Part shown: one piece after another, positions 3,411-26,081 of the stretch
Position numbering within the stretch: position 1 is the first letter of the stretch
Layout: each line of letters begins with the position of its first letter
IMG/VR virus record: IMGVR_UViG_3300011339_000331
Location: 1-26,081 of that record
Origin: a virus
Taxonomy: Duplodnaviria; Caudoviricetes
Direction: 5' to 3' (one strand)
Length of the DNA stretch: 26,081 nucleotides
Made by a program: the position numbers and the translations under genes
Notes under the pieces: model-generated
Database searches by the model: none
Told to the model about the DNA's origin: nothing
The model's input: the letters and a program-made list of their open reading frames with translations, nothing else

Positions 3411-3691
3411 ACGTCTCGATGTTCCTGAAGTTTTGGAACCTGCGCGAGCATTACCGCGCCGTCTTTTGGCGATCTGAAACCGATGAGGCGCACCTGCGTG
3501 CGATCATCAACGACCTGCGCGAGTTCTGTCGCGCGGACCAATCGTGTGTCGTGGTGGCGAAGGATGGCCGCATCGACACGCATGCGTCGGCTGTAGCGGA
3601 AGGCCGGCGCGAAGTGTGGCTGCGGATCACGCAGACCCTCAACCTTTCCGACGAAACCCTGCAACGCTTTAAGGAGCAAGAGAATGACTGA
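3401..3691 (+). CDS. Bbp19-like small head-module protein
   Basis: Y-x-x-VF...IINDLREFC...AVAEGRREVWLRI pattern; conserved position between portal and scaffold. Confidence 0.8.
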   Translation: MALNVSMFLKFWNLREHYRAVFWRSETDEAHLRAIINDLREFCRADQSCVVVAKDGRIDTHASAVAEGRREVWLRITQTLNLSDETLQRFKEQEND

Positions 3692-4202
3692 ACCCATTGC
3701 GCAATACATCGGCGTGAAGCTGATCAACGCCAAACCAATGACTCGCCTAGAGTACAACACCTTCCGTGGCTGGGCCCTACCTGCTGACGAAAACGGCGAC
3801 GATGAAGGCTACCTGGTCGAATACCTCGACGGCGGCAAGGCCAACCACAAAGACTACGAGGGCTACATCTCTTGGTCGCCGAAGGACGTGTTCGACCGGG
3901 CATATGGCCCGACCACTGGCATGACCTTTGGCTTGGCGATCGAGGCCTTGAAGAAGGGCTCCAAGGTGGCGCGAGCTGGCTGGAATGGCAAAGGCATGTG
4001 GCTTGTGTTGGTGCCAGGCACAAAGGACGTCGCACTGCGTGCGGGCACGCCATACGAAAAGGCGCTCGGCGATGTTCCTCCGATCGAAATCCTTCCGCAC
4101 ATCGACATGTGGACGACGAACGCACAAGGCCGTCGCGCGATGCTGCCGGGCTGGCTCGCCAGCCAGACTGATATGCTTGCCAACGACTGGTCGATTGTTT
4201 GA
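3684..4202 (+). CDS. tad2: Two-domain protein: N-terminal YIGVK...GYLVEY...SWSPK domain fused to a C-terminal DUF2829/Tad2-family nucleotide-signal sponge
   Basis: C-terminal half (from M80, base 3921) has MTFGLAIEALKKG-x-KVARAGWNGKGMWL...W-x-x-SQTDMLA-x-DW, the DUF2829/Tad2 signature; TAAGGAG RBS. Confidence 0.85.
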   Translation: MTEPIAQYIGVKLINAKPMTRLEYNTFRGWALPADENGDDEGYLVEYLDGGKANHKDYEGYISWSPKDVFDRAYGPTTGMTFGLAIEALKKGSKVARAGWNGKGMWLVLVPGTKDVALRAGTPYEKALGDVPPIEILPHIDMWTTNAQGRRAMLPGWLASQTDMLANDWSIV

Positions 4203-4228: not shown

Positions 4229-4987
4229 ATGACTGATCCCGTATCGAATCCCGCACCGGCCGCACCTGCTGCACCGGCACCAGCCGTAGCTGCCGCGCCT
4301 GCTGCACCCGTGAACGCTGCTAGCGCTCTGATGGGCGACCCTGCCGCCGCTGCTGGCGCTGCTGCTGCTCCGGCCGCACCGGCTGCCGCTGATCCTGCTG
4401 CGGATCCAGCCAATCCCGCCGACCCTGCACCTGCCGCGCTGACTATGCCCGGCAAGGACGCGACGCCCGAGGAGTGGTCCGCGTTCTACGCCCAGATCGG
4501 CCGGCCAGAGACGCCCGAGGGCTACGAGCTGCCGCTGCCTGAAGGCGACGACGGCGCGTTCGCCAAGCAGATGGCCCCGATCCTCCACAAGCATGGCGTG
4601 AGCGCCGAGCAGGCCAAGGGCCTGGCTGCCGACTGGAACGCGATGGTGGCCGCACAGGTCGCCGAGATGGATGCAGCCGATGCTGCACACGCCACAGCCA
4701 TGAACGCCAAGAACACGGCCGAGGCTGCCGATCTCAAGAACGAGTGGGGCCAGGCGCACGACGCCAACATGCACTTTGCCAAGCTGGCGGTGCAGCAGTT
4801 CATGCCCGCCGAGAAGGCCGGCGACGTGATCGCGGCGATCGAGTCCAAGCTCGGCTACAAGGCGACGATCCAGTTCTTGCACGGCATCGGCAAGGGTCTG
4901 GGCGAGCATGACGCGGCCGGCATGGGTGCCAACAACAGCGCAGCCCCAAGAACATTGGCCGAGCGTTTGTACCCTGGCGCGACCTGA
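4229..4987 (+). CDS. Capsid scaffolding/assembly protein
   Basis: AAGGAG RBS; Ala/Pro-rich N-terminus, GRPETPEGYEL, helical core with LKNEWG, C-terminal LAERLY; immediately before the major capsid gene. Confidence 0.85.
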   Translation: MTDPVSNPAPAAPAAPAPAVAAAPAAPVNAASALMGDPAAAAGAAAAPAAPAAADPAADPANPADPAPAALTMPGKDATPEEWSAFYAQIGRPETPEGYELPLPEGDDGAFAKQMAPILHKHGVSAEQAKGLAADWNAMVAAQVAEMDAADAAHATAMNAKNTAEAADLKNEWGQAHDANMHFAKLAVQQFMPAEKAGDVIAAIESKLGYKATIQFLHGIGKGLGEHDAAGMGANNSAAPRTLAERLYPGAT

Positions 4988-5006
4988 TCTGTTGTTTTAA
5001 CGCAAC

Positions 5007-5036
5007 AAAGCCCGCTTCATCGCGGGTTTTCTTTTT
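5007..5036 (+). terminator. Rho-independent terminator after the scaffold gene
   Basis: Stem AAAGCCCGC / GCGGGTTTT, loop TTCATC, followed by CTTTTT. Confidence 0.85.
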
Positions 5037-5046
5037 GCGGCCGCGC

Positions 5047-5082
5047 ATTGCGAGATTCGCATCAGTGTTGTATATTCACAAC
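5047..5082 (+). promoter_or_regulatory. Sigma70-like promoter for the capsid gene, overlapped by two palindromic operator-like sites
   Basis: TTGCGA (5048-5053), 17 bp, TATATT (5071-5076); palindromes ATTGCGAGATTCGCATC (5047-5063) and GTTGTATATTCACAAC (5067-5082). Confidence 0.7.
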
Positions 5083-5149
5083 CGATTGGTGCCGAATTCT
5101 CCGACGAGGCATCGAGTGACCCCCGAAGTCTCATTTTTGGAGCTTATCA

Positions 5150-6199
5150 ATGGCAACTCTCCCCACCAAGGCTGGCGCGGTCACTTTGACTGATTTCGCC
5201 AAGTCCATCGACCCCAACGGCTCTACAGCCACCGTCATCGAACTGCTCTCGCAGTCCAATGAAATCTTGCAGGACATGACCTTCATCGAAGGTAACCTGC
5301 CCACCGGCCACCAGAGCACGATCCGCACTGGCCTGCCTACTCCGACATGGCGCAAGCTGTATCAGGGTGTGCAGCCCACCAAGAGCACTCGCGCACAGGT
5401 CGTCGACACCTGCGGCATGCTGGAAGCCCGCAACGAGATCGACGTCAAAGTCGCCTCGCTGAACGGCAACACAGCTCAGTTCCGCATGTCCGAAGCCATG
5501 TCCGAGATCGAAGGCATGAACCAGGCCCTCGGCGAAACTCTGATTTACGGCGACACGTCCGTGAACCCTGAGCGCTTCACCGGCTTGACACCTCGCTACA
5601 ACACCCTGTCCGCTTCTGTGCCCACAAGCCAGAACGTGATCGACGCTGGCGGCACCGGCTCCGACAACACCTCGGTGTGGTTGGTGGTCTACGGTGAGAA
5701 CACCATCACCGGCATCTATCCAAAGGGCTCGCAGGCTGGTTTGAACCACCAAGACCTGGGCGAGATCGACGCCTTCGACGCATCCAACAACCGCTATCGC
5801 GCTTACGCCGATCTGTGGAAGTGGGACGTGGGTTTGGCCGTTCGCGACTGGCGCTACGCCGTGCGCATCGCCAACATCGACGTGTCCGACCTGGTCGCCC
5901 AGAGCGGCACCCAGGCATCGACTGCCGGCACTGCACTGATCAAGACCATGATCCGCGCAATGGCTCGCATCCCGATGATGGGCATGGGTCGCCCTGTGTT
6001 CTACGCGAACCGCACAGTGAAGGAATTCCTGAGCATCGCCGCGATGGACAAGTCGAACGGCGCACTGGCTGTCCAGCCTGCCGCCAACCAGTTCGGCACT
6101 GTGGCTCCTGGCTCCGTGAATAACGGCACCACGACCTTCCTGGGTATCCCGGTTCGCACCGTGGACCGCATCCTGTCCACTGAGGCCCGCGTGGTCTGA
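5150..6199 (+). CDS. Major capsid protein (epsilon15 gp7 / BPP-1 Bbp17-like, HK97 fold)
   Basis: 349 aa; IELLSQSNEILQDM, RTGLPTPTWRKLYQGV, F-x-GL-x-x-RY, DWRYAVRIANID and C-terminal GIPVR-x-x-D-x-ILSTEARV; strongly biased codon usage. Confidence 0.95.
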   Translation: MATLPTKAGAVTLTDFAKSIDPNGSTATVIELLSQSNEILQDMTFIEGNLPTGHQSTIRTGLPTPTWRKLYQGVQPTKSTRAQVVDTCGMLEARNEIDVKVASLNGNTAQFRMSEAMSEIEGMNQALGETLIYGDTSVNPERFTGLTPRYNTLSASVPTSQNVIDAGGTGSDNTSVWLVVYGENTITGIYPKGSQAGLNHQDLGEIDAFDASNNRYRAYADLWKWDVGLAVRDWRYAVRIANIDVSDLVAQSGTQASTAGTALIKTMIRAMARIPMMGMGRPVFYANRTVKEFLSIAAMDKSNGALAVQPAANQFGTVAPGSVNNGTTTFLGIPVRTVDRILSTEARVV

Positions 6200-6202
6200 T
6201 CA

Positions 6203-6228
6203 AGCTAGGGGCTTCGGCCCCTGGTTTG
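6203..6228 (+). terminator. UUCG-tetraloop hairpin after the capsid gene (leaky terminator or mRNA stabiliser)
   Basis: GCTAGGGGC-TTCG-GCCCCTGGT with only a short U tract. Confidence 0.7.
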
Positions 6229-6256
6229 TCCTCCCCCATTTTTCAAGGAACCCATC

Positions 6257-6688
6257 ATGATCCTCGATACCCAAGAAACATTCAGCGACGCCCAGAGCGT
6301 TGCATCCGCTGCTGGCGACGTGGCCTCGACCAACGTCTACGACACCGGCGCTGCTGCCGACATCGGCATCGGCAATGACGTCTACCTGTACGCCAAGATG
6401 AACGCCGCCCTCGTTGGTGCTGGCGCGTCCATCGCTGTCGTGTTGCAGGACTCGGCCGACAACTCCACCTTTGCCGACGTGCAAGTGGTCAGCAAGGTCA
6501 CTCCCGTGGCCTCCGCTGTCGCCAACGCCGAGCTGGTTCGCGCCCGCCTGCCGATCGGCCTGCGCCGCTACATCCGCTTGGCCTACCGCATCTCTGGCGC
6601 GACCACCACTGGTGGCACTGTGACTTCGGCCCTGGTGCTGGATGTGCAGGCCCAGCAGTACGGCGCTAGTGGCTTCACGGTGGCCTGA
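6257..6688 (+). CDS. Bbp16-like capsid cement/decoration protein
   Basis: MILD...FSDAQ...STNVYD...DIG-x-G...LQDSADNSTF...RRYIRL-x-Y pattern; directly after the capsid gene. Confidence 0.85.
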   Translation: MILDTQETFSDAQSVASAAGDVASTNVYDTGAAADIGIGNDVYLYAKMNAALVGAGASIAVVLQDSADNSTFADVQVVSKVTPVASAVANAELVRARLPIGLRRYIRLAYRISGATTTGGTVTSALVLDVQAQQYGASGFTVA

Positions 6689-10563: not shown

Positions 10564-11130
10564 ATGGCTTTTGTAATGCCCCTTTTTGCTGCGCTGGGCA
10601 CTGCTGCCGGTGCATCTGCCGCAACGGCCGGCATCGCCGGTCTGTCGCTTGCCTCTGGCGCTCTCGGCGTCGTGGGCGCGATCCAGCAGGGCAAGCAGGC
10701 CAACGCCGCCGCGCAGTCCGAAGCCAACATGGCCGAGTACAACTCCAAGATGGCCGAGATCCAGGCGCGCCAGGCTTACGCCGCTGCCGGGGTCCAGGAG
10801 GACGAGATTCGACGTCGTGGCCGTGTGGCCCTGGGCAACCAGCTGGCGTCCAGCGCCGAGGCCGGAGCAGGCCTCAATGGCGACCTGCTGCGCGAGTCGG
10901 TCTTCGGCATTGAGTCTGATGCCATGGCGATCCGCTACGAGGGCGATCTGAAAGCTCAAGGCCTGAAGGACAACGCTGCCCTGCAATCGTCTGCCGCTGC
11001 TGTGGCGCGCGATCGCGGCAAGCGAGCCGTGACCGCCTCCTATCTCAACGCAGGCGCTTCAGTCCTGAATTCTGCAACCAGTTACTACGGCGCGACCTCT
11101 AAGATCGCATCTGCCGGAAAGGTCGCCTGA
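10564..11130 (+). CDS. Small ejection/internal virion protein (T7 gp14-like)
   Basis: Ala/Gly-rich hydrophobic N-terminus followed by a long Ala/Gln helix; first gene of the ejection cluster. Confidence 0.8.
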   Translation: MAFVMPLFAALGTAAGASAATAGIAGLSLASGALGVVGAIQQGKQANAAAQSEANMAEYNSKMAEIQARQAYAAAGVQEDEIRRRGRVALGNQLASSAEAGAGLNGDLLRESVFGIESDAMAIRYEGDLKAQGLKDNAALQSSAAAVARDRGKRAVTASYLNAGASVLNSATSYYGATSKIASAGKVA

Positions 11131-13769
11131 TGGCACGCGCAATCCCAACCTACCAGCGCCAGAACCTGGCCGGCGGCATCCAGTCCGCACCCAACGCCTC
11201 GAGCAGCGTCTCGGCCAATGACCCGGTGGCGCAGGCCTTGGGCAATATCCGCCAAGCCGCAGGCAATGCCGGCAATGCGCTGGCTGACGATGCCATCCGC
11301 TTGGCGGCAGAGGGCCGCAAGCAGATCGAGAACGCCGCTGCGGTCGATGTCTCCCACGTGCTGTCGCAGGGCGATGTGTACTGGCAGGAGGACTCCACCA
11401 AGCGCATGCAAGCCTGGAAGGTTGGCGACCCTGACCTGCGCGAAGGCATCGGCGCTGACTTCGATAAATGGACGGCCGAGTCTGCGGCCAAGCTGCCGAC
11501 CGAAGCCTCGCGCAAGTATTTCCAGCAGCACGCTGCGGGCATGAAGGCACGGCTCCAGACCAATGCCTTCTCGTTCCAGGAAAAGTCTGCCACCGCCAAG
11601 CTAAACGCCGACAGCGATGCTGGGCAACAGGCTGACGAGAACGTGGTCTACAACGAACCAGGCCGCTTTGGCGAGATCTACAAGCGCCGCATCGAGCCTT
11701 TGCTGGCCCGCACCGACATCTCCGAAGCCGAGAAGATCAAGGCTGCCGACATCTACAAGCGCAAACTGAGCCTGGCCGTCGAGCGTGGCGAAATGCAACG
11801 CGATCCGGTGGGCTGGTATCGCAAGCGCTTTGGCGAGTTTCGGCCAGCCGAAGCAGCACCGACCACTGGCGCGAGTGGCGGCGGTGCAGGCTTTGATGCA
11901 GTCATGCCGCGCATCTTCGCTTCCGAGGGCGGCTATTCAGCCAGCGACGGCAACACTGGCAAGCCCGTAAACTTTGGCATCAATCAGGGCGCAAACCCTG
12001 ACGTAGACGTCAAGAACCTGACCAAGGAAGGCGCGGCCAAGATCTACAAGGAGCGCTACTGGGACGCCATCAAGGGCGACACCCTGCCAGCAGCCCTGCA
12101 AGGCACGGCGATGGATGCTGCGGTCAACCAGGGCCCGGCCAACGCCAAGAAATGGATCGAGGCATCCGGTGGCGATCCGGTCAAGTTCAACCAGCTGCGC
12201 CGAGATCACTACGAGATGCTGTTGCAAGACCCGGTGAACCGGAAATACCGCAACGCATGGATGGGACGGCTGACGTCGTATGAGCGCGACGCGACCGGTG
12301 GCGGGGGAACAGCTTCCGCTCCTGGCGCACCTTCTGGCGATCGAGCGGCACCAGCTTCGCGGCCTGTCATCGAGCAGCCGGCCACCTTCAAGGGCATGGA
12401 CTGGGAGCAGCAGGACGCCCTGAAGTCGATGGCCGAGACGCGCATGCGTCAGGACCAGGCACGCCTTCAGGCCGAGGTGGATCTCAAGGTGCGCGACGCT
12501 ACGGCCATGCAGGCCGACGGCAAGGTCGACCCGTTCAACTTCACGCAAGAGACGTTCACCCAGGCCTACGGTGCCGACGGGGCCCGCCGCTTCCAGGACT
12601 ACCAGAGCGGCCGGGTGATGGCTGCCGACATCGGCTCCTACATGACCATGTCGCCGACCCAGATCGAGGCCTCGCTCCAGGCGAACCAGGAACGTGTCAA
12701 CGGCGTCGCGTCTGGCGGTGGGTCTGGCTATGCCGCCGCTGATCAGCGCCAGCAGCTGCGCATCCGTGCCGCTCAGTCGGTGGTGAAGATGCAGCAGGAA
12801 GACCCGCAGGCCTATGCCGTCAAAGCTGGCCTGTCGACGGCCAAGCCCCTGGACATGGGCGACCCTGCCAAGTTTGGTGCCGAGCTCGCAAGCCGAGCGG
12901 CCACGGCCTCCATGCTGCGCGACACCTACAAAACGCCCTTCACGCTGCTGATGAAGAACGAGGCGACCGCGCTGTCGGCCGGCTTCAACAAGATGAGCAG
13001 CGAGCAGAAGCTGGCCTACCTCGGCGCTGTGGCGAAATCCGTCACCGACCCGCAGGCGGCTGCGTCCGTGTTCCAGCAGATCGCGCCTGACAGCCCCGTC
13101 ACCGCTGTGGCCGGCAAGCTGATGACCATGACCGGCTCGAGCCCGATCGGCGCGGGCATGTTCTCCAGTGGCACGACCTACAACCCCAAGACCGTCGCCA
13201 CGATGATCATCCAGGGCGAGGAGCTCCTGAACCCCAACAAGGCCATGAAGAAGGAAGACGGCAAGCCCGTGAACCTGATCATGCCCAAGGAACAGGATCT
13301 GCGCGACCCGTTCAACAATGCGGTGGGCGCGGCCTTCACCAACCAGCCCCAAAGCGCCGAGGTCGCCTACCAGTCGGTCAAGGCCTACTACGCGGCCAAG
13401 ATGGCCCAGCTCGGCGACTACTCCGGCAACGTCAACACGTCGGCGGTCAAGGAGGCGATCGAGGCTGTGACCGGTGGCGCGTCGGATTTCCGCAACACCA
13501 AGGTGATCCGACCCTGGGGCATGTCCGACGACAACTTCAAGGACAACGCCAAGAAGGCCTTCGATGCCGAGATGGTGCGCCTGGGTCGCAAGGGGCCGGC
13601 TGCCAACTTTGCCTCCTACGGCATGGAGAACTATGGCGACGCCTACCGGCTGCGCGCAGGCACTGGCTATGTCGAGGAACGCCCAGGCGTGCCCCTGACG
13701 CTGTACGTCACCGGGCCCAGCTTTGCTGGCGCTGGTCGTGGCATGATCAACCCATCACCAGCACAGTAA
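11130..13769 (+). CDS. Ejection protein with an inserted GH108-like (EGGY) lysozyme domain
   Basis: M-x-x-x-IPTY start; helical body; domain at about 11892-12275 with EGGY (11925-11936), FGIN, V-x-NLT...A-x-x-IY-x-x-RYW, DAAVNQG and W-x-x-R, flanked by Gly/Pro linkers. Confidence 0.85.
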   Translation: MARAIPTYQRQNLAGGIQSAPNASSSVSANDPVAQALGNIRQAAGNAGNALADDAIRLAAEGRKQIENAAAVDVSHVLSQGDVYWQEDSTKRMQAWKVGDPDLREGIGADFDKWTAESAAKLPTEASRKYFQQHAAGMKARLQTNAFSFQEKSATAKLNADSDAGQQADENVVYNEPGRFGEIYKRRIEPLLARTDISEAEKIKAADIYKRKLSLAVERGEMQRDPVGWYRKRFGEFRPAEAAPTTGASGGGAGFDAVMPRIFASEGGYSASDGNTGKPVNFGINQGANPDVDVKNLTKEGAAKIYKERYWDAIKGDTLPAALQGTAMDAAVNQGPANAKKWIEASGGDPVKFNQLRRDHYEMLLQDPVNRKYRNAWMGRLTSYERDATGGGGTASAPGAPSGDRAAPASRPVIEQPATFKGMDWEQQDALKSMAETRMRQDQARLQAEVDLKVRDATAMQADGKVDPFNFTQETFTQAYGADGARRFQDYQSGRVMAADIGSYMTMSPTQIEASLQANQERVNGVASGGGSGYAAADQRQQLRIRAAQSVVKMQQEDPQAYAVKAGLSTAKPLDMGDPAKFGAELASRAATASMLRDTYKTPFTLLMKNEATALSAGFNKMSSEQKLAYLGAVAKSVTDPQAAASVFQQIAPDSPVTAVAGKLMTMTGSSPIGAGMFSSGTTYNPKTVATMIIQGEELLNPNKAMKKEDGKPVNLIMPKEQDLRDPFNNAVGAAFTNQPQSAEVAYQSVKAYYAAKMAQLGDYSGNVNTSAVKEAIEAVTGGASDFRNTKVIRPWGMSDDNFKDNAKKAFDAEMVRLGRKGPAANFASYGMENYGDAYRLRAGTGYVEERPGVPLTLYVTGPSFAGAGRGMINPSPAQ

Positions 13770-13773
13770 AACC

Positions 13774-16700
13774 ATGAACCTCTTTTCAGTCGGCGGGACA
13801 GAACAAGCCAACCAGGATTCATTTGCACGGGCGAACCCGCTTAAAGCGGACGACCTAAAGGCTGGGTTCTTTGAGGGCATCCCACAGGCAGCCGCGCTCG
13901 GCGCTGGTGCTGCCGTCAACAACTATGCAAGGCCCATGGCCGATGCCGCCAAGGGCATCGACAGCATGTTCAAGACGGACATGTCTGGCTGGCTGGCGAA
14001 GGAACAGGAAAAGACGCAGCAGGCCTCGCGCGACCTGACCCCGAACCCCGCGACCGTCGGCTGGTTGGGCCAGCAGGTCTACGGCGCGACCAACATGATC
14101 GGCAGCGTTGCCATCGGCACGATCGCCACCGGCAACCCCATCACGGGTGCTGCTGTGGGTGCCGCGGCCATGGGTAACAGCGCCTTCAATCAAGCGCGCG
14201 AGGACGGCCTCGACTTCAACACGTCGGTCGGCATGGGCGGCATCACGGCAGGCTCCACCTTCATCGGTGCGTTTCTGCCTGTTACGGCCACCACCAACAT
14301 GGCGACAGGCCTGCTGGGTAAAGCCATGGGCGCAGAGGTCGCAGGCAATGCGGCCACGGCAGCCGCCCTGTACACAGCAGCTGGGGCAACAGCCACCATC
14401 GCCACCAACCTCCCGTCCAAGATCGCCGCAGCTGGCGCGATCAACACGGCCACCGGCATCCCTACCCGAGGCGCGACATCGGCGCTGCTCGAGGCCAATG
14501 GCTACGCCGACATGGCGAAGCAGTACGAGGCCTTCAGCATGTCCGAGATGATCAGCGACTTCGCGGTCGGCTCGATCTTCGGCCTGGGCATCCATGGCTA
14601 CCAGAAGTGGGAGCAGGCCAACCAGAACAAGATCCCGGCTGCGCAGATGTCCGACCTTGATGCTGTGCTGGCGCTGACCAACGCAGCCCACATCGAGATC
14701 AAGACATCGCCCGGCATCCCGACCGACCCGGCCACTCGCGAGGCGCACGTCGCTGCCATCAACAAGGCGCTGACCGACCTGGCCGAGGGCCGTCCTGTCG
14801 ATGTCGGCCAGGCCGTCACCGAGGGCAACTTCATCGAAGACCCCACAGCTGTGCAGACCCGGACGGACATCGTGCGTGTGGTCGAGGATCACATGGGCCC
14901 AGAGTGGGAAGGCTTGCAGGCAGATCTCGCCGCACGCGGCATGCCGACCGACACGAACCTGTACCAGGTGACCCGCACGCCGGCAAACCAGATGTCTCAG
15001 GTGCGACCGACCATGGAGGTCAACCGCATCATCGAGCGCGGCAAGGCCGAGGGCTGGGACACCGAGCGCATGATCACTGAGCTCGAGACGCTGAAGGGCA
15101 AGCTCGAGCAGCGCAACGAAGCCCAACTCGAGGCCAGGACAGGCGATCGCGTGCGTGGCGAATTGTGGGTGCGTGAGCGCCTGCTGCGTGCCGAGCGCAA
15201 TGGCGAGCTGCCACCCGAGGCTGTCCGCCTGGCGAACTGGCTGATCGACCAAAACCCGAACCTGGTCGCCGACATCGGCCTGTCGTTCAAGAAGTCCGGC
15301 GATGTGCAGGGCGAGGCCGGCGGCTACAACCCGCTGGCGCGCATCGTGACGCTGATCAAGGGCCGGGCCAACGACGAGACGGTCATTCATGAGATCTTGC
15401 ACCACGCCGAGCGCATGATGCCGGAGGGCGTGCAGAAGGCGATCCAGGCCGAGTGGTTCAAGGAGTTGCGCGCCGTCACCCAGATGGCGACCCGCACCCA
15501 GAACCAGACGCTGATGAAGGCCACAGACGATGCGCTGCGGGCTGCCAACGGCGACGAGCGCGCCTTCCGCAACCTGGCCGAAGCGATCGCCAACGGCGAG
15601 GCCGACGACCGCTTTTACGCCCTGGCGAACCCATCCGAGTTCTGGGCCGTCAATGGCTCCAGGATCCTGCGCGAGCGGGCCAGCGAGGGCTGGGTGCAGC
15701 AGGCCAAGCAGTGGCTGGCCGAGTTCATCGAGAAGGTCAAAGCCACCTTCGGCCTGCGCTCTGACGCTGCCGTGATCCGTGGCCTCAACGATGTGCTGAA
15801 ATCCGACGGCGCGTTCCTGAACGACAACCTGCTGGCCGATGCTGCCGTGCCGCGCATGAAACAAGTCACCCGCGACAGCGTCGAGCGCCCAGGCCGCGAC
15901 ACTGCCCAGGAAAACCTGAACGGCTTCGAGCCGGACCTGCGCGTGCGCGTGCCCATGGGCAAGATCGAACTGCCGGCCAAGCCGCTGGTGCTGACCGGCA
16001 CCAACAAGAAGAACGCCGCGCGCCAGATCGCAGGCATCGACGAGACGCTGGCGAAGTTCCCCGACGCCGACACATCGCCGCTCGAGTGGTCCAAGATGAT
16101 GGCCTACGCCATGGCGACCGACGACGTGCCAGTCCCGCCCTACCGGTTCCTGAAGGACATCAACAGCGACGGCGCTTTCCGCAGCCTGTCGCGCCTGTCG
16201 GCCGGCCAGATCGCCGACGCCAAGCACGGATTCGAGAACGCCCAGGCCTTCCGCGACGCCTACGTCAACAAGGAGCTGGACGTCGAGACGACCGGCAAGC
16301 TGTTCATGTGGTCGTTCCTGTCGCGTGGCGTGAGCCCGTACACACAGGAGGGCCTGTTCATCGACGGCTTCAAGGGCGCTGGCGACTGGATCAAGAAAGC
16401 AGCCGACGGCAACCTGACCGAGGCCGACTTCCCCGCCTACAAGGCATGGGCAAAGTCGGTCGCGCCGCAGGGCTCGGGCCAGCCAGGCTCTGGTGCCACG
16501 CATAACCTGAACGCCTTCGGCAAGCTGTTCCTGTTCAAGATGGGCCAGAAGGACGAGAACGGCGTCTCGTTGCTCCAAAAGATGCACACCCTGATGGAAG
16601 ACCCCGAGGTCACCGGGCAGCAGATCCGTCGCTGGTTCATCGAGAACACCGAGGGCGTCGGCATCGACAACAAGGTCGTGTCGTTCACGCTCCTGGTGGC

Positions 16701-17607
16701 GGGCTTCAAGGATCTGATGGTGCTCGACCGGGTCCAGATCCGGCAGCTGTGGGACGATGGCCGCTTTGGCGATCGCAACCTCTATGACGGGCGCAAGGTC
16801 GACGGCAAGCCCGTGGCCGGCTCGGCGCTGTCGGAGATCACCTACGGCGCACGCGGCCTGCTGATCTACGAGGCCATCGAGCGCGCTCTCGAGAAGCGCA
16901 TCGTCAACCTCTACACCTCGCTGGGCCGTCCAGAAGACGGCAGCGTCGGCCGCTACCACTGGGAGACGTGGGTCGCCGACAGCCAGCAGGAGGCCAGCCA
17001 CGGCACGCTGGACGCGATCCTGATGGACGCCAAGGGCAACACCGAGATGATCCCGCAGGTGACCGCCAACGACGGCGAATACGGGGCCTATGCCTACGGC
17101 GCGCGCTACGGTCGCGATGCGGACGGCCAGCCCTATTTCATGTACGGCCTGAACGGTGGCGACGAGTACCGCTTCACAGTCGGGGCTTTCCGCGAGTTCC
17201 TCGATGCCGTAAAATTACCCAAGAACGGCGTCGTCCCGACAAAGTTCAAAGTCACGGAAGCCGGCAATGCCCCTTGGTACGAACGACCCGAAGTCAACAG
17301 ACAAGCCCTCGACGAGCTCGCCCAGCGCTACGCCGGAGAGCCCGGCACGGGCGAAGGAGCGGGAACTGTTCCAACGGATGGCGCGGGTCAAGCAGTACCC
17401 GATAGCGCCGGACGAGGAGCCACAGGCCCCGACCCCTACAGCGCCGAAACGGTAATCATCAACAACCCTGCACTGACGATCATCGGAGCCGATGGCGAGA
17501 TGGTGTCAGCCGGTCGTGCGCTTACCGCAGCTGATGCGGAAATCGCTACGGCAAAGCAGGAATCGCAAGGCTACGATGCGGCTGTGGCCTGCGCCCTGAG
17601 AGGCTGA
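13774..17607 (+). CDS. Large ejection/polyvalent protein: N-terminal hydrophobic Ala/Gly region, HExxH metallopeptidase module, HhH-GPD glycosylase-like domain, short C-terminal helix
   Basis: 1277 aa; HEILH at 15388-15402 plus downstream EFWA (15637); GVGIDNK...VLDR at 16654-16731; C-terminal AVACALRG; sits inside the ejection gene cluster. Confidence 0.85.
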   Translation: MNLFSVGGTEQANQDSFARANPLKADDLKAGFFEGIPQAAALGAGAAVNNYARPMADAAKGIDSMFKTDMSGWLAKEQEKTQQASRDLTPNPATVGWLGQQVYGATNMIGSVAIGTIATGNPITGAAVGAAAMGNSAFNQAREDGLDFNTSVGMGGITAGSTFIGAFLPVTATTNMATGLLGKAMGAEVAGNAATAAALYTAAGATATIATNLPSKIAAAGAINTATGIPTRGATSALLEANGYADMAKQYEAFSMSEMISDFAVGSIFGLGIHGYQKWEQANQNKIPAAQMSDLDAVLALTNAAHIEIKTSPGIPTDPATREAHVAAINKALTDLAEGRPVDVGQAVTEGNFIEDPTAVQTRTDIVRVVEDHMGPEWEGLQADLAARGMPTDTNLYQVTRTPANQMSQVRPTMEVNRIIERGKAEGWDTERMITELETLKGKLEQRNEAQLEARTGDRVRGELWVRERLLRAERNGELPPEAVRLANWLIDQNPNLVADIGLSFKKSGDVQGEAGGYNPLARIVTLIKGRANDETVIHEILHHAERMMPEGVQKAIQAEWFKELRAVTQMATRTQNQTLMKATDDALRAANGDERAFRNLAEAIANGEADDRFYALANPSEFWAVNGSRILRERASEGWVQQAKQWLAEFIEKVKATFGLRSDAAVIRGLNDVLKSDGAFLNDNLLADAAVPRMKQVTRDSVERPGRDTAQENLNGFEPDLRVRVPMGKIELPAKPLVLTGTNKKNAARQIAGIDETLAKFPDADTSPLEWSKMMAYAMATDDVPVPPYRFLKDINSDGAFRSLSRLSAGQIADAKHGFENAQAFRDAYVNKELDVETTGKLFMWSFLSRGVSPYTQEGLFIDGFKGAGDWIKKAADGNLTEADFPAYKAWAKSVAPQGSGQPGSGATHNLNAFGKLFLFKMGQKDENGVSLLQKMHTLMEDPEVTGQQIRRWFIENTEGVGIDNKVVSFTLLVAGFKDLMVLDRVQIRQLWDDGRFGDRNLYDGRKVDGKPVAGSALSEITYGARGLLIYEAIERALEKRIVNLYTSLGRPEDGSVGRYHWETWVADSQQEASHGTLDAILMDAKGNTEMIPQVTANDGEYGAYAYGARYGRDADGQPYFMYGLNGGDEYRFTVGAFREFLDAVKLPKNGVVPTKFKVTEAGNAPWYERPEVNRQALDELAQRYAGEPGTGEGAGTVPTDGAGQAVPDSAGRGATGPDPYSAETVIINNPALTIIGADGEMVSAGRALTAADAEIATAKQESQGYDAAVACALRG
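17187..17260 (+). promoter_or_regulatory. Putative gene-internal promoter and RBS for the nested ORF
   Basis: TAAAAT at 17210-17215, formed by rare codons GTA AAA TTA; weak -35 TTTCCG (17187-17192) at 17-bp spacing; GGAAG at 17256-17260, 6 nt before ATG 17267. Confidence 0.4.
17267..17455 (+). CDS. Putative nested (+1 frame) 62-aa protein overprinted in the ejection gene
   Basis: ATG with RBS and upstream -10. Over 17332-17452 the host frame falls to 22/40 G/C-ending codons while the nested frame has 32/40 (hand count). The host frame is a low-complexity linker here. Confidence 0.45.
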   Translation: MPLGTNDPKSTDKPSTSSPSATPESPARAKERELFQRMARVKQYPIAPDEEPQAPTPTAPKR

Positions 17608-17608
17608 C

Positions 17609-20266
17609 ATGAAAGACAAATGCGTTGCCGCCGGCGCCCAGGCCATTGGCCGCGACATCACCACGCAGGAAGCCCAAGGCCTCGAGGACCGCATCCTCAA
17701 GAACATGCGCTTCGAGGCGTCCAAGGATCCGGCGGCGTTTCGTGCGCTGTCGTCCGATGAGCGTCTCAAGCTGGGCGCAAGCCTGGCAGCCGACGAGCTG
17801 ATCAAGGAGGCCGACCTCAAGAAGCGCCGCATCGTCATGACCATCCAGGCGCATGACCGCATCGAGGGCTTTTTGGGCGAGGCACGCGCTGCCGGCATGG
17901 AAGACCTGGACGCCCTCAAGCGCACCCTGGTGTTCGTCGCCGACGGCAAGAGCAACACCATGTCGGTCGAGAGCCGGGGCACAGCCATCCGCAACGATGC
18001 CGTGCGCCAGCTGGTGGACACCTTCGAGGCTGTCGATCCGCGCTTCTGGGGCCTGTTCGAGAGCCCCGAGGGCGTCAAGATGCTGACCCGCGCGATCTTC
18101 GGCGAGAAGACCGGCAACGCCCAGGTCGACAAGGGCGCGCAAGCCTGGCTCGACGTGGCCGCTCAGATGCGCGACGCCTTCAACAAGGCGGGCGGCAAGA
18201 TCGGCCTGCTGGAGAACTGGTCGCTGCCGCAGCACCACAGCCAGGCCAAGGTCAACAAGGCCGGCGCTGACACCTGGATCCAGGACACCCTGCCCAAGCT
18301 GAACCGCGAGAAATACGTCAACGACGACGGCACGCGCATGAACGACCAGCAGCTCGAGGAAGTGCTGCGCAATGCCTGGCTGACGCTGGCGACCGGTGGC
18401 ATCAACCAGATCACGCCTGGCGCACCTGGCGGCGGCATGCTGGCAAACCGGCGCGCTGCGCACCGCGAGCTGCACTTCACTGACGCCGACGGCTACCTGG
18501 CCTACCAGGAAAAGTACGGCGACAAGTCGCTGTGGGGTGTGATCACCGGCCACATCGAGGGGCTCTCCAAGGAGATCTCGATGCTGGAAACCTACGGCCC
18601 GAACCCCGACGCGACCTTCAACCTGTTCCTCGAAAAGAGCGTGCAGAAGCAGGCGATCAACGACCCGGCCTCCACCGAGGCAGCCCAGCAGGAAGCCCGT
18701 CGGCTGTCCTCGCTCTACGACTACACCACCGGCAAGACCACGCCGATCGTCAATGAGAACCTGGCTCAGACCTTTGACACGCTGCGCAACTGGCTGGTGT
18801 CCTCTCGCCTGGGCTCGGCCGTCATCACGTCGCTGACCGACGAGGCGACACTGCACCTGACCGCGCAGGTCAATAACCTGCCCGAGGTCCAGTTGATCCG
18901 AAACGAGCTGGCGGCTCTGAACATCGCCAACAAGACCGAGGAGAACCTGGCGCACCGCGCAGGACTTGGCCTCGACACCATGCTCAACCACCTGAACCGG
19001 TGGGGCGCTGACAATCTGGGCCCGACGTTCTCGTCAAAGATGGCGAACACCGTCATGCGGGTGTCAGGCATGGAAGCCCTCGACGGGGCCCGGCGTCGCG
19101 CGTTCGGCGTGACCATGATGTCGTCGCTGGGCGAGGTGGTCGGCAAGTACGACAGCCTGGGCAAGCTCGATGCAGACGACAACCGGATCCTGCTGTCCAA
19201 GGGCATCACCGAGACGGATTACCAGATCTGGCGCTCGGCCCAGCTTGAGAAGTGGGGCGCTGGCAATGGCGTGCTGACACCCGAGTCGATCATGCGCATC
19301 CCCGAGGCCGCGATCTACGAGGCATCCAAGGGCCGCATCGCCGAGCTGCAAGCCGAGCAGCAGGCCAAGATCGACGGCATCAATCAGATGTCGGCCATGA
19401 CGCCCGAGGCCAAGGCCGCATCCATCGCCGACTGGTCCAAGGTCTACGGCGAGCAGATCGCCAACGTCACCGACACAGCCCGCCGCAATGCGGTGCTGCG
19501 CCTGCTGGCTGTGGTGCAGGAAGAAACCGACATGGCCGTCATCCGGCCAGGCGCGGCCGACAAGTTTCTGACCGGTGCCGGCATGGAGCGCGGCACCTGG
19601 AAGGGTGAACTGACCCGCTCGTTCTTCCAGTTTAAAGCCTTCCCCCTGGCGATGATCTCCCGGCACTTCATGCGCGGCATGAGCATGGAGACGGCTGGCG
19701 GCAAAGCGCTTTACCTGGGCAGCCTGATCGCCGGCACCACCATCCTGGGCGCTGTGTCGCAGTCCGTGAATGACCTGCTGTCCGGCAAGGATCTGCGCAA
19801 CTACAACCCGTTTGAGGGTGAGCACGGGGCCAAGAACTGGATGGCCGCGTTTTTGAAGGGCGGCTCGCTGGGCCTTTACGGCGACTTCCTGTTCTCCGGT
19901 GCAACCCAGCACAACCAGGCGGGCCCGATCGCCGCGGCGCTGGGCCCTGTGGCCGGCCTCGTCGAGGAAGCCTTCAAGATCACCCAGGGCAACATCGTCC
20001 AAGCCATGCAGGGCAAGGACACGAACTTCGGCGCGGAGGCCGTGCGCTTCGTCAAGGGAAACACGCCAGGGGCCAACCTCTGGTACGCCAAGGCGGCGCT
20101 CGACCACATCATCTTCCACCAGCTGCAAGAGTATTTCAGCCCAGGCTACCTCGCGCAGATGCAGCGCCGGGCTCAGAACGAGTTCGGCCAGCAGTTCTGG
20201 TGGACGCCAGGCACCGGCACGGAAGGCATGCGAGCCCCAGATCTGGGCCGGGCTGTCGGCCAGTAA
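17609..20266 (+). CDS. Large ejection/internal virion protein (last of the cluster; C-terminal membrane-inserting region)
   Basis: 885 aa; LPQ-x-H, R-x-LHF, GPNP, GT-x-x-GE-x-x-R-x-x-x-QFK-x-FP, GG-x-LG-x-YGDFLF and P-x-x-NLWY motifs typical of this podovirus group. Confidence 0.85.
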   Translation: MKDKCVAAGAQAIGRDITTQEAQGLEDRILKNMRFEASKDPAAFRALSSDERLKLGASLAADELIKEADLKKRRIVMTIQAHDRIEGFLGEARAAGMEDLDALKRTLVFVADGKSNTMSVESRGTAIRNDAVRQLVDTFEAVDPRFWGLFESPEGVKMLTRAIFGEKTGNAQVDKGAQAWLDVAAQMRDAFNKAGGKIGLLENWSLPQHHSQAKVNKAGADTWIQDTLPKLNREKYVNDDGTRMNDQQLEEVLRNAWLTLATGGINQITPGAPGGGMLANRRAAHRELHFTDADGYLAYQEKYGDKSLWGVITGHIEGLSKEISMLETYGPNPDATFNLFLEKSVQKQAINDPASTEAAQQEARRLSSLYDYTTGKTTPIVNENLAQTFDTLRNWLVSSRLGSAVITSLTDEATLHLTAQVNNLPEVQLIRNELAALNIANKTEENLAHRAGLGLDTMLNHLNRWGADNLGPTFSSKMANTVMRVSGMEALDGARRRAFGVTMMSSLGEVVGKYDSLGKLDADDNRILLSKGITETDYQIWRSAQLEKWGAGNGVLTPESIMRIPEAAIYEASKGRIAELQAEQQAKIDGINQMSAMTPEAKAASIADWSKVYGEQIANVTDTARRNAVLRLLAVVQEETDMAVIRPGAADKFLTGAGMERGTWKGELTRSFFQFKAFPLAMISRHFMRGMSMETAGGKALYLGSLIAGTTILGAVSQSVNDLLSGKDLRNYNPFEGEHGAKNWMAAFLKGGSLGLYGDFLFSGATQHNQAGPIAAALGPVAGLVEEAFKITQGNIVQAMQGKDTNFGAEAVRFVKGNTPGANLWYAKAALDHIIFHQLQEYFSPGYLAQMQRRAQNEFGQQFWWTPGTGTEGMRAPDLGRAVGQ

Positions 20267-20297
20267 GGTGTTGTGAAATCACAACGCCTGCTTTTTT
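20266..20297 (+). terminator. Rho-independent terminator whose stem contains an operator-like palindrome
   Basis: AGGTGTTGTG-AAAT-CACAACGCCT followed by GCTTTTTT. Confidence 0.75.
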
Positions 20298-20299
20298 GT

Positions 20300-20327
20300 G
20301 GTGTGAAAACCACATCATTGATAGAAT
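20300..20327 (+). promoter_or_regulatory. Tailspike promoter: operator-like palindrome plus extended -10
   Basis: GGTGTGAAAACCACATC (20300-20316); TGaTAGAAT (20319-20327). Confidence 0.6.
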
Positions 20328-20353
20328 CCCACCAACGAATTTAGAGGCCATCC

Positions 20354-23300
20354 ATGACCGTCCCAACAAGCACCGCCAAGTCCGGCCCTTATGCGGGCTC
20401 GGGCACGACTGGACCCTTCACCGTCGGATTTCGATTTCTGGAGAATTCACACCTTCAGGTCATCCGCACCTCCAGCACGGGCGTCGACACGACCCTGGCG
20501 CTGACCACTGACTACACCGTGTCTGGCGCTGGAGGCGCTTCTGGTTCCGTCACCCTGGTGGCAGCCTTGGCCGTCGGCCAGCAGCTGACCATTATCCGCA
20601 ACGTGCCATTCACCCAGGATGCCGACTACGTCCAGAACGACGCCTTCCCGGCCGAGTCGCATGAGCGCTCGCTGGACAAGCTGACCATGCAGACGCAGCA
20701 GCTGCTCGAGGCCGTGGACCGCGCGGCCAAGCTGCCTGTCACCAGCACAGCCGACTCCGAGGAGCTGGCCGCAGACATCACGCTGCTGGCGAACAACATC
20801 ACCAACCTGACTGCCGTCTATAGCGCGATCCCAGCGATCACGACCGTGGCCAACGATCTGAACGAGCCGGTGTCCGAGATCAACACGGTGGCGACCTCGA
20901 TCGCCAACGTCGACGCGGTGGGCACGAACATCTCCAACGTGAACACGGTGGCCGGTGTCTCTGCCGCAGTCAGCACCGTGGCGACCAACATTGCCTCAGT
21001 AAACAGCGCGGCTTCCAACATGGCCGCGATCATCGACGCACCTGCGCAGGCAGCTTCTGCTGCGGCATCGGCTGCTGCCTCTGCCGCCTCTGCTGCCTCT
21101 GGCCTGTACAGCGCCGTGCAGGCTACAAGCGCCGACTACACCGTCGTGGCTGGCGATGCTGGCGACCTGATCCGTGTGACCACCACAGGCGGCGCGCGCA
21201 CGATCACCCTGCCTGCGATCTCGTCGGTGTCCGACGGCTTTAAGGTGGCGATCGTCAAGTGGACGGGCGACGCCAACGCGGTGACAGTGGCCCGCTCTGG
21301 CTCCGACACGATCAACGGAGCAACCAGTTTTGCGCTTGGGACGCAGTACTCCAGCGCGATCTTTGTTGCTGATTTTGAGACGTCTCAATGGTTCGCCTCG
21401 GCTTCTGGCTTTGGCACGACCAGCGTGGTGGTAGACCGTTTCAGCGGCAATGGCTCGACAGTCGGGTTCACGCTGACTGGAGATCCAGGCACGGTGAACA
21501 ACACATCGGTGTTCGTTGGTGGTGTCTACCAGCAGAAGAACACGTATTCGGTTTCGGGTGTAACGCTCACGTTCAGTTCGGCACCTCCGTCTGGCACAGG
21601 TAACGTCGAGGTGGTTTGGACGCAGCCTTTGGCGATCGGCGCGACAACTTCTGATCTCGTGAAGTACGCACCAGCAGGCACAGGATCAGTCGCCACCACA
21701 GTGCAAGCTAAGCTGCGGGAGAGTGTGAGTCCTGAAGATTTTGGAGCAGACCCTAGCGGCGCAACAGATAGCGCGGCAGCTTTTACACAGGCGCTTGCAG
21801 CATCCAAAGAAGTAAAAGGCACTCCCGGTGCCGTCTACTTAATTGCGTCAACTGTTACTGTAACCAGCGATAAAACTCTTACAGCAAATGGAGCTTCGTT
21901 TAAAGGTTCATTGGGAGTAACGTGCTTTCGTCTAACTGGGAATAACAACACGTTTCAAGGATGGAAAGTCGCGGCTGAGAGCGCCTTGTATTTCATACGT
22001 AACGACGGTCAGCGAAATTCTTTCCAGAACAACACATTCAGCGGGAACGTGGGCCACTACATCTTTTCGCCAGGTGCGCTCTACACGAAAGTTATCGGAA
22101 ACGCTTTTGAGTGTGAGTCGGACACCGACGTGACGACGTGCGTGGTTTTTGAAACCTGCCAACACTTCGTATTCAGCGGCAACTCATCCAACGGCGTGCC
22201 GATTGGGTGGACGGTACAGGTGCGCAGTTCCTCACAAAGCGGCGTCATCACAGGAAACACGTTCCGACAATTCATCTGGCAGGACACCAAGACCGCCACT
22301 GCAGGGCAAACGGTTTTTAACTTCACCCTGGGCTCGGTGGTGAATTTCAAGGGCATCCAAGTTAACGGCAAGCCCGTGACGCAGGGCTACACCATCACCG
22401 GCACTGGGCCCAGCTACACCGCCACGTTTGCAGCCGGGCGCACTGCTGGCGAATCCATCAAGCTGGTCGGCTACCGGGGCGCGGAGAACGTGCAGTTGAA
22501 TACGTCTGCGTTTGACATCACGGTAGCCAACAACGTCATCAACGGTACGGGAGACTCTGGAATTGTCTGTCTTGCGGACCGCGTGACGATTACCGGCAAC
22601 ATCGTCAAGAACGCGGCCTACTGTGGCATTGCGCTGTACGGCGGTCAGAACAACATCACGGTTAGCGGTAACGTCATCAGCGACTGTTCGCAACTGGATG
22701 ATGGTCTTGCCAGCCCCGAAAACCCTGGGCTGGCATCCACGTTCAACGGCGGCATCATGGTCAGCGGTTCTCAGATCGCCGTCACTGGCAATGTGATCGT
22801 CAACGACTCCGGGACGATGGCTTATGGCATCCGCGTCAACACAGTGGACAACGTGGAGGACGGCAGCTCGGACAAAGCGATCAAGATCGGCAACAACGTC
22901 TTCCGAGGTTCGTTCTCGGCCGGCAAGGTGTGGATGCCCCAAGACACCTTTGGAAAGCGGATCGCCTCGGTAACGATCACAGATGGCCTGATCACGCAGT
23001 ACCCCGGAAAAATTGCCATGGATGCTGCTTGGGTGAACGTCCCGACAAGCAACGATTACTGGACGAATTCAGGTTTCGGCGGGACGTATTCCGTGCGCGA
23101 TACGGCGACAAAGCTAGGCGGAGTAGCTTCATTGCGTACCGTCGCCGGTGAGTACGTTGACTTTGCTCCGACCGCCAAGGGGATGTTCAAAAATTGCATT
23201 GTAAAGATCAATTTCTGGGCAAAGAACAACAGCGGGTCGTCGTACTGCTCAGTCTTCTCTGTGCTTTCCGGGCTTAATGCTGCGGTCACGGTGAACATCA

Positions 23301-23437
23301 CGGACACAAACTGGCGTGAGTACACGCTGATGGTTCCTCTTACAGAGAACTTGACTGAGTTGGGCTTGATTCGATTTGGGGCCAATAGTGGAAACGCAAA
23401 CATCCAGCATATTGATGTATCGATGATCCGTATCTAA
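20354..23437 (+). CDS. Tail fibre/tailspike with a right-handed beta-helix (pectin lyase-like depolymerase)
   Basis: T7 gp17-like N-terminal anchor (Y-x-G-x-G...F...L-x-x-x-TDYTV...HE-x-x-LDKLTM), stalk repeats, V-x-x-KLRE-x-VS-x-x-DFGA junction, many I/V-x-GN repeats and a C-terminal beta-sandwich. Confidence 0.9.
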   Translation: MTVPTSTAKSGPYAGSGTTGPFTVGFRFLENSHLQVIRTSSTGVDTTLALTTDYTVSGAGGASGSVTLVAALAVGQQLTIIRNVPFTQDADYVQNDAFPAESHERSLDKLTMQTQQLLEAVDRAAKLPVTSTADSEELAADITLLANNITNLTAVYSAIPAITTVANDLNEPVSEINTVATSIANVDAVGTNISNVNTVAGVSAAVSTVATNIASVNSAASNMAAIIDAPAQAASAAASAAASAASAASGLYSAVQATSADYTVVAGDAGDLIRVTTTGGARTITLPAISSVSDGFKVAIVKWTGDANAVTVARSGSDTINGATSFALGTQYSSAIFVADFETSQWFASASGFGTTSVVVDRFSGNGSTVGFTLTGDPGTVNNTSVFVGGVYQQKNTYSVSGVTLTFSSAPPSGTGNVEVVWTQPLAIGATTSDLVKYAPAGTGSVATTVQAKLRESVSPEDFGADPSGATDSAAAFTQALAASKEVKGTPGAVYLIASTVTVTSDKTLTANGASFKGSLGVTCFRLTGNNNTFQGWKVAAESALYFIRNDGQRNSFQNNTFSGNVGHYIFSPGALYTKVIGNAFECESDTDVTTCVVFETCQHFVFSGNSSNGVPIGWTVQVRSSSQSGVITGNTFRQFIWQDTKTATAGQTVFNFTLGSVVNFKGIQVNGKPVTQGYTITGTGPSYTATFAAGRTAGESIKLVGYRGAENVQLNTSAFDITVANNVINGTGDSGIVCLADRVTITGNIVKNAAYCGIALYGGQNNITVSGNVISDCSQLDDGLASPENPGLASTFNGGIMVSGSQIAVTGNVIVNDSGTMAYGIRVNTVDNVEDGSSDKAIKIGNNVFRGSFSAGKVWMPQDTFGKRIASVTITDGLITQYPGKIAMDAAWVNVPTSNDYWTNSGFGGTYSVRDTATKLGGVASLRTVAGEYVDFAPTAKGMFKNCIVKINFWAKNNSGSSYCSVFSVLSGLNAAVTVNITDTNWREYTLMVPLTENLTELGLIRFGANSGNANIQHIDVSMIRI
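20790..21035 (+). repeat. Approximately 10-residue periodic stalk repeat in the tailspike (I-x-x-V-x-T-V-A-x-N)
   Basis: INTVATSIAN / VDAVGTNISN / VNTVAGVSAA / VSTVATNIAS / VNSAASNMAA; boundaries approximate. Confidence 0.7.
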
Positions 23438-23489
23438 ACGTGTAATTCAGCCAGTGCGTAGTATTTAAAACAGTAACATACAGGCAAAG

Positions 23490-23729
23490 ATGACCCCAAT
23501 AGAACGCGCCGAATTCATCGCAGACGTGGCGGCTGCAATCCAGATCGCCCCACCTGCTTTGACTGACGACGAGCAGCGCTGGGTTCGCATGGCGATACAG
23601 CGTGAGGCTCAGTCGATCGAGCTGCGCCGGGCCATCATCGAGAAAACTTTAAGCGGTCTGGTGTGGTCGATGCTGATCGCGGTCGGCTACCTTATCGCAG
23701 ACTTTTTCAGAAACCACGGCTTTAAATGA
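23490..23729 (+). CDS. Small membrane protein with one C-terminal TM helix (holin-like or lysis accessory)
   Basis: 79 aa; hydrophobic LSGLVWSMLIAVGYLIA; first gene of the lysis cluster. Confidence 0.65.
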   Translation: MTPIERAEFIADVAAAIQIAPPALTDDEQRWVRMAIQREAQSIELRRAIIEKTLSGLVWSMLIAVGYLIADFFRNHGFK

Positions 23730-25808: not shown

Positions 25809-26081
25809 GCCTGCCCCATGGCGATCGCCTTGCCCGTCAGATCGGCTGCGGCCTTTGCGGCACCGGTCTGCATGTAGGCATAGCCGGCCGTGGTGTCTGT
25901 CGACGCATGGCCGAGCAGCGACCCCACAGCTTCAAGCGTCAGGCCAGCTGACAGGCCCGTGGAGGCGTAGAAGCGACGCAGGGCGTGCATCCGCAGGTTC
26001 GTGACCTCGGCGCGCTTTAGCACCCCTTTCCATCCGTTCTTTGGCGACTGCAACGCTGTGCCCTCAAGCCGGCCGCAGCTC
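25805..26081 (-). CDS. int: Tyrosine recombinase/integrase, C-terminal end only (5' part lies beyond the window)
   Basis: HALRR (H-x-x-R), LLGH and TTAGY catalytic motifs; frame is open to the window edge. Confidence 0.92.
   Translation of the reverse strand, partial: SCGRLEGTALQSPKNGWKGVLKRAEVTNLRMHALRRFYASTGLSAGLTLEAVGSLLGHASTDTTAGYAYMQTGAAKAAADLTGKAIAMGQA

Follow-up and report, generated by a model that had tools for sequence, protein, structure and literature searches.

Does a short reading frame that lies out of phase inside a large virion gene, directly behind a glycosylase-like domain, encode a protein of its own, and if so, what might that protein do? The question arises in a 26,081-base virus record, the whole of which is called the window below. 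For this record an earlier note had proposed an overprinted gene with its own promoter, encoding an immunity or inhibitor peptide. Annotated in the window are terminase, head-tail connector, capsid, tail tube and nozzle genes, as well as internal virion protein, tail spike and lysis genes. Judged by a match to Bbp16 and by its gene order, the virus may be a temperate podophage of the BPP-1-like type, and a temperate phage is also suggested by a C-terminal fragment of a tyrosine integrase at the right end of the record (25874-26047, minus strand), with an E value of 2.9e-7 that falls below the family cut-off. The coordinates of the principal features are collected in Table 1.

Table 1 Features of the host gene and of the nested gene, in window coordinates.
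Feature	Position	Strand	Remarks
Host gene	13774-17607	+	1277 aa; polyvalent virion protein, probable ejection protein
HEILH (HExxH) motif	15388-15402	+	Read in translation; possible zincin-like metallopeptidase domain
Cargo domain	15874-17340	+	489 aa, host residues 701-1189
Ogg2-like HhH-GPD core	about 16150-17001	+	Structural match to 3n0u
Predicted catalytic Lys	16672-16674	+	K267 of domain
Predicted catalytic Asp	16726-16728	+	D285 of domain
Predicted -35 box TTTCCG	17187-17192	+	Identical in 11/11 close-clade loci
Predicted -10 box TAAAAT	17210-17215	+	17 nt behind the -35 box; 11/11 close-clade loci
Shine-Dalgarno-like GGAAG	17256-17260	+	GGAG/GGAGG in relatives
Nested gene	17267-17455	+	62 aa, +1 frame of 13774-17607, starts with ATG
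Conserved peptide core, K30-I46	17354-17404	+	Amphipathic helix with L34/F35/M38, then invariant Pro45

Elsewhere in the window, a protein of 172 aa, whose C-terminal part matches a Tad2-like (anti-Thoeris-like) domain (E 2.1e-24), is encoded on the plus strand at 3684-4202, between the head-tail connector and capsid genes. A terminator-like hairpin with a T run (20266-20289, plus strand) directly follows the last virion gene before the tail spike, and within the tail-spike gene the GC content is 0.49-0.57 (21500-23500) compared with about 0.63 elsewhere, as expected of a swapped receptor-binding module.

The host gene is flanked by internal virion and head genes (phrog_308, 418, 992 and 684). 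Its product comprises an N-terminus matching phrog_1145 (residues 1-358, the only part to match PHROGs), an HExxH region, the glycosylase cargo domain and a short C-terminal tail. The HExxH motif and a later Glu were recognized by eye in a region without Pfam or PHROG match, and a zincin-like identity is suggested by comparison with section 8 of Iyer et al. 2017 (PMC5512222). In that paper, polyvalent phage proteins are multi-domain proteins of the virion module that are predicted to be injected with the DNA. The protein in the window resembles them: it belongs to the virion module, has an HExxH region and a predicted enzymatic cargo, and combines at least two disparate domains (structural N-terminus, HExxH region, glycosylase) in one polypeptide; its relatives carry PF18760, PF18834, PF18838, PF18857 and PF13508. 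It differs in its glycosylase and its embedded frame: the main text of PMC5512222 has no mention of a glycosylase, of overlapping or of a linker, and its abstract and section 8 describe no nested genes or cognate inhibitors. The preceding plus-strand gene (11130-13769) encodes a virion protein of 879 aa that contains an internal glycosyl hydrolase 108 domain; two of its N-terminal stretches were tested and gave no host-frame match in close relatives.

The cargo domain was modelled with AlphaFold (AF2; pLDDT 88.9), and the model was compared with known structures in a wide VIA-align search. The best match was Thermotoga Ogg2 (TmOgg, PDB: 3n0u; Z 15.2, RMSD 3.2, 207 of 209 residues), and the runner-up had a Z of 9.8. 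K267 and D285 are invariant across 43 domain sequences and align with the HhH-GPD motif of MjOgg (PDB: 3fhf), albeit in a weak profile match (E 0.024). A PDB sequence search with the single protein returned no match, an ESM Atlas search returned only leads below 0.9, and the family had no match among 50,697 annotated phage records. The family was counted at 344 proteins among 7996 scored candidates, with 452 clusters at 50% identity.

In Ogg2 enzymes, according to PMC3397491, a strictly conserved C-terminal Lys distinguishes 8-oxoG from G through its carboxylate. This 8-oxoG sensor is absent from the cargo domain: the last residue of the template 3n0u, 207, aligns at model residue 376, which is an internal invariant His, and the chain continues for 110 more residues and a linker, so that no terminal Lys is possible. 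The domain is thus like Ogg2 in its fold and its HhH-GPD Lys/Asp pair and unlike it in its length (489 aa versus about 209), in being part of a polyprotein and in lacking the sensor. From the model we conclude that it probably works like an Ogg2-type glycosylase/lyase, yet lies outside Ogg2 itself, since fold and Lys/Asp are shared and the terminal Lys is missing.

Two further observations concern the domain. Residues 396-459 (about 17060-17250, plus strand) weakly resemble PC4/Pur-alpha nucleic-acid-binding folds (Z 2.9-3.0), which we regard as a lead only. In seven loci (L010, L025, L067, L068, L069, L075 and L076) the copies of the domain are 40-60 residues longer than that in the window and free of stops, and in several proteins the profile match breaks near position 310, which suggests a variable insertion site.

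Behind this domain, the window contains the 62-aa +1 open reading frame described in the earlier note, beginning with its ATG 6 nt downstream of GGAAG. The TAAAAT box is built from three codons that are indeed rare in the host gene (GTA, 3 of 73 Val; AAA, 8 of 57 Lys; TTA, 1 of 95 Leu) and is the only plus-strand copy in the window. Host-frame GC3 does drop at the nested frame, to 22-25 per 40 codons compared with mostly 30-39 upstream. The reported contrast between 22 G/C-ending host codons and 32 in the nested frame was reproduced for the 40-codon window starting at 17333; eleven other windows gave 23-25 versus 32-34. The caveat attached to that contrast holds: GC3 of the +1 frame is simply GC1 of the host frame, which ranges over 20-32 per 40 codons elsewhere in the gene. 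The GC3 comparison is therefore weak by itself and was dropped as evidence. The length of the frame was likewise discarded, as eleven ATG-started frames of at least 50 aa occur in the +1 frame of ten window genes (6486 codons). Two more GC3 dips with raised A3 (24-30 per 40 codons) lie in the host gene on the plus strand, at 13774-13900 and about 14250-14430; the +1 frames at 14108 and 14348 were tested against relatives and are not conserved. By itself the window makes a weak case, and it is the comparison with relatives that lifts the nested frame above chance.

For this comparison, 80 viral loci were used (79 anchored loci and the window), of which 44 representatives below 90% identity were retained. 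Left out before counting were L078 and L139, which have no anchor, loci at least 90% identical to others, and loci with too little flank; L029 was omitted from alignments A1 and A2, and L047 and L058 from A2. Over a core of host codons +19 to +51 from a conserved Trp, the +1 frame is free of stops in all 44 representatives; synonymous resampling predicted 15.9 ± 3.3 stops for this core, whose limits were picked after inspection. In the flanking windows, +1 stops were near expectation (34 versus 29.0, and 43 versus 50.3). Since the core had been chosen post hoc, it was applied to new loci: it was open in 19 of 19 held-out representatives and in 10 of 11 of a third set, where the single stop was the peptide's own end.

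An HMM of the peptide matched the site in the +1 frame in 73 of 74 non-redundant representatives (29 of 30 held-out ones) and gave no off-site match when all six frames of these loci were scanned. At host codon positions 1, 2 and 3, nucleotide identity is 0.63, 0.61 and 0.34 in the domain and 0.42, 0.52 and 0.57 in the core; the phase of conservation flips from the host frame to the +1 frame in the core. Among 13 close loci, synonymous codons made up 11% of differing codons in the host frame (76/688) and 45% in the +1 frame (298/658), in pairs that are not independent. Twelve alternative-frame ORFs in and around the gene were tested, and the nested one alone was free of stops while agreeing with relatives no less well than the host frame does. 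In a subfamily with 39% identity to the domain, an ATG-started +1 frame with a similar core was found in 11 of 11 representatives; of its 18 loci, 13 match the peptide profile at E < 1e-5 and the others match weakly or by eye. All locus counts are inflated by shared ancestry. These comparisons make it very probable that the nested frame is a genuine embedded gene overlooked by annotation; it has a start codon and ribosome-binding site of its own and is linked to the glycosylase-like domain, as the earlier note had proposed.

The start signals are conserved together with the frame. GGAG precedes the ATG used in the window (offset -3) in 42 of the 43 representatives that start there, and in 0 of 30 that start elsewhere; the sole exception is the window's own GGAAG, which is weaker than the motif of its relatives. 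The other starts lie at offsets -16, +1, +4, +12, +18, +22 and +24, mostly with an SD-like motif of their own; in L183, for example, a GTG start follows GGAGG. In a quick tree of 71 rows, these alternatives fall in separate branches, and the start has moved several times. ATG and SD relocate together between lineages. Among 485 codons examined for synonymous bias, three of the top sites are AAT, which makes the ATG, ACG/TCG, which makes the SD, and codon +3 in the overlap. These signals bear on the possibility that ribosomes reach the +1 frame by programmed frameshifting, which would make it an alternative C-terminus. The frame does overlap the end of the domain, where a shift would neatly truncate the polyprotein; we nevertheless consider frameshifting very improbable, given an ATG and SD that are conserved and move together, and a clade starting at +12 that has an in-frame TAG immediately ahead of its ATG.

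A conserved promoter-like element occurs in one part of the tree. The boxes TTTCCG and TAAAAT are conserved throughout the window's clade, where TTTCCG requires a T-ending codon that the gene's own usage would give with a probability of 0.01-0.15, and TAAAAT is preserved despite amino-acid changes at V/L/I-K-L/S; the combination xTA AAA occurs in 0 of 20 other V/L/I-K dipeptides. The element at 17187-17215 has one origin, with a tree support of 89, and is restricted to this clade. The proposal of an own promoter is thus supported, as a conserved promoter-like element, in the window's clade; the other clades lack the element at that position. A consensus promoter scan of 13000-21000 gave no sites, the -35 box matching at only three of six positions. 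Promoter-like sites in other clades lie at -79, -115 or about -132 nt. A weight matrix built on approximate frequencies gave its top rank to the upstream window in all 11 loci of the clade and in 18 of 52 others (about 5 expected), although these loci are not independent; promoters outside the window's clade are suggestive only. Contigs from four RNA runs contain scattered pieces of 15500-18500, with small shares only in the three runs on record as RNA; as assembled contigs they are silent on start, strand and level.

Which of the two frames leads in the core is indicated by where each ends. Of 85 representatives, 11 have a host-frame stop within the peptide, whose own frame runs on past it; the host frame continues for fewer than 60, 60-120 and at least 120 codons in 3, 22 and 49 of 74. 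Host stops within a continuing peptide suggest that the linker is probably the read-through of a cassette of enzyme plus partner. In the core, the peptide frame is thus probably the one under constraint, with the host linker resembling a read-through of it, so that the term 'overprinted' probably has the direction wrong there. An ORF that merely reflects linker composition and codes for nothing is a scarcely credible explanation: frames of this length are common in +1 phase, but this one shows higher conservation than the host frame and persists past host stops.

A known parallel is lambda Rz/Rz1, where, according to Kongari et al. 2018 (PMC6139136), an embedded same-strand +1 gene missed by gene callers encodes a product that partners the host product. 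The nested gene shares with Rz1 the same-strand +1 embedding, an own start and ribosome-binding site, the oversight by gene callers and a second frame kept by selection inside another gene. Spanins, however, act in lysis at the membrane and have a TMD and a lipobox, whereas here a soluble 62-aa peptide without Cys, linked to an enzyme domain, would be encoded in the virion module. PMC6139136 also raises loss of a stop codon as a route to embedding. In our simplest reading, in which the order of events is inferred, an ancestral tail-to-head cassette would have held the enzyme and a small partner gene with overlapping ends; embedding probably came about by loss of the enzyme's stop codon, upon which the other frame of the partner gene would have become a linker to further domains.

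The peptide has no Cys and no hydrophobic signal. Across 73 loci, L34 is present in 64, a hydrophobic F/M/L at position 35 in 73 and P45 in 73; the ends are variable and dispensable. An AF2 model predicts a helix at residues 26-39, with an overall pLDDT of 71.9 and a pTM of 0.29. As in the earlier note, a Gly/Pro-rich host linker underlies the helix, but the first 20 or so codons of the peptide overlap the folded last motif of the domain. The core carries a mean net charge of +0.7 and is not acidic, so a DNA mimic was rejected. As an alternative, the earlier note took the peptide for a decoy of a peptidase that would cut hydrophobic-x-Gln linker motifs. Such motifs occur from 25 residues upstream of the domain to 5 residues into it in 31 of 43 hosts, a count made with no chance control, and the host protein has its HExxH region. 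The residues that matter to this proposal are poorly kept, with the Gln of LFQ retained in 10 and the Gln of VKQ in about 30 of the 73 peptides, while conservation falls on L34, hydrophobic 35/38 and P45; we regard the decoy as highly improbable.

Linkage to the domain is close and extends over many uncultured phages. A small ORF lies immediately behind the domain in 73 of 74 representatives and in 11 of 11 distant ones. All seven loci located by the peptide alone were contigs already known to carry the domain, and are close relatives only; queries P0130, P0256 and P0249 gave no loci, so the most distant subfamilies and any peptide without the domain are thinly sampled. The most divergent locus, L083 from an Acidimicrobiia MAG (46% identity; searched behind the match at 4942-6633), keeps the Lys/Asp motifs and has no recognizable peptide. 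A rather improbable alternative is a small effector with a role of its own, for example in superinfection exclusion or binding of a host factor, that travels with the domain only by embedding. The peptide's own promoter-like and SD signals would suit such an effector, interaction with the domain being itself a proposal, but the frame stays directly behind the domain across downstream architectures, down to 39% identity, and the peptide-only searches led back to the domain.

On balance, with moderate confidence, we favour a cognate inhibitor that would bind the Ogg2-fold domain. An inhibitor or immunity role is plausible by analogy and linkage, and this reading draws on the tight linkage, the predicted separate promoter and the position of immunity genes behind MuF toxins. 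Immunity genes of MuF polymorphic toxins, as described by Jamet et al. 2017 (PMC5576092), usually take the form of a small ORF that directly follows the effector. The window is similar in that a head-module effector of a temperate phage is directly followed by a small ORF, which in their case is thought to confer immunity. It differs in that no MuF domain was matched by Pfam in the host protein, the effector often has an internal position, and the small gene, instead of following the effector gene, is nested in another frame of it. Dag antiviral HhH glycosylases, according to bioRxiv 10.1101/2025.10.29.685425, are host-encoded defences against modified phage DNA. They are HhH glycosylases repurposed for conflict, as the enzyme in the window may be, whereas that enzyme is phage-encoded virion cargo.

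Under the inhibitor reading, the glycosylase would be a late product that is packaged into the virion and enters the cell with the injected DNA. The peptide would be translated from its own start on late mRNA while the cargo accumulates, and would also be made in the lysogen from a sigma-70-like promoter inside the coding sequence of the enzyme, keeping the enzyme inactive in both the producing cell and the lysogen. Left behind at injection, it would allow the enzyme to act only in a newly infected, peptide-free cell. Several observations speak against this reading. The closest structural relatives of the domain are repair enzymes, and toxicity is an assumption of the model; L083 has the catalytic motifs without the peptide; the core lacks the acidity of a DNA mimic; linkage may persist by physical neighbourhood without binding; the promoter at this position is a feature of one clade; and the window's own SD is weaker than that of its relatives.

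The linkage of domain and peptide applies equally to a positive partner that binds the domain as an activator, as a specificity subunit or as a chaperone for folding or packaging. The domain has no terminal Lys as in Ogg2, and a peptide acting in trans could make good a missing part, for example by replacing the C-terminal sensor. We consider a positive partner unlikely, if well worth keeping in view: an internal promoter separable from late transcription fits protection of the lysogen better than assembly, and the enzyme motifs of L083 occur without a peptide.

Among the listings and abstracts covered by the literature search, neither this glycosylase family nor any nested gene in a polyvalent protein was described, and we found no protein inhibitor of an HhH-family glycosylase. 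Inhibitors of uracil glycosylases of the Ugi type are known, and if the peptide inhibits the enzyme, it would be a candidate protein inhibitor for the HhH family. The gene belongs to a class that annotation drops: gene callers yielded 26 such peptides, mostly on short contigs, compared with 452 domain clusters, and the built-in antidote that the gene likely encodes is of a kind missed by standard annotation.

The arrangement offers a solution to a design problem, namely how a dedicated partner gene can stay with an effector that sits inside a polyprotein. Tentatively, and as a possibility we rate below the inhibitor reading itself, polyvalent proteins may be strings of effector-plus-antidote cassettes in which some 'flexible linkers' are the out-of-frame read-through of antidote genes, the present case being an injected glycosylase with a promoter-driven inhibitor in the same ORF. 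This would offer a concrete reason for the odd Gly/Ala/Arg-rich linkers of giant injected phage proteins, and makes protection of the producer from its own polyvalent cargo a testable question. If it is true, an antidote inside the same ORF would render enzyme and antidote inseparable when the domain shuffles between virion proteins, and lysogens would be immune to the cargo of their kin.
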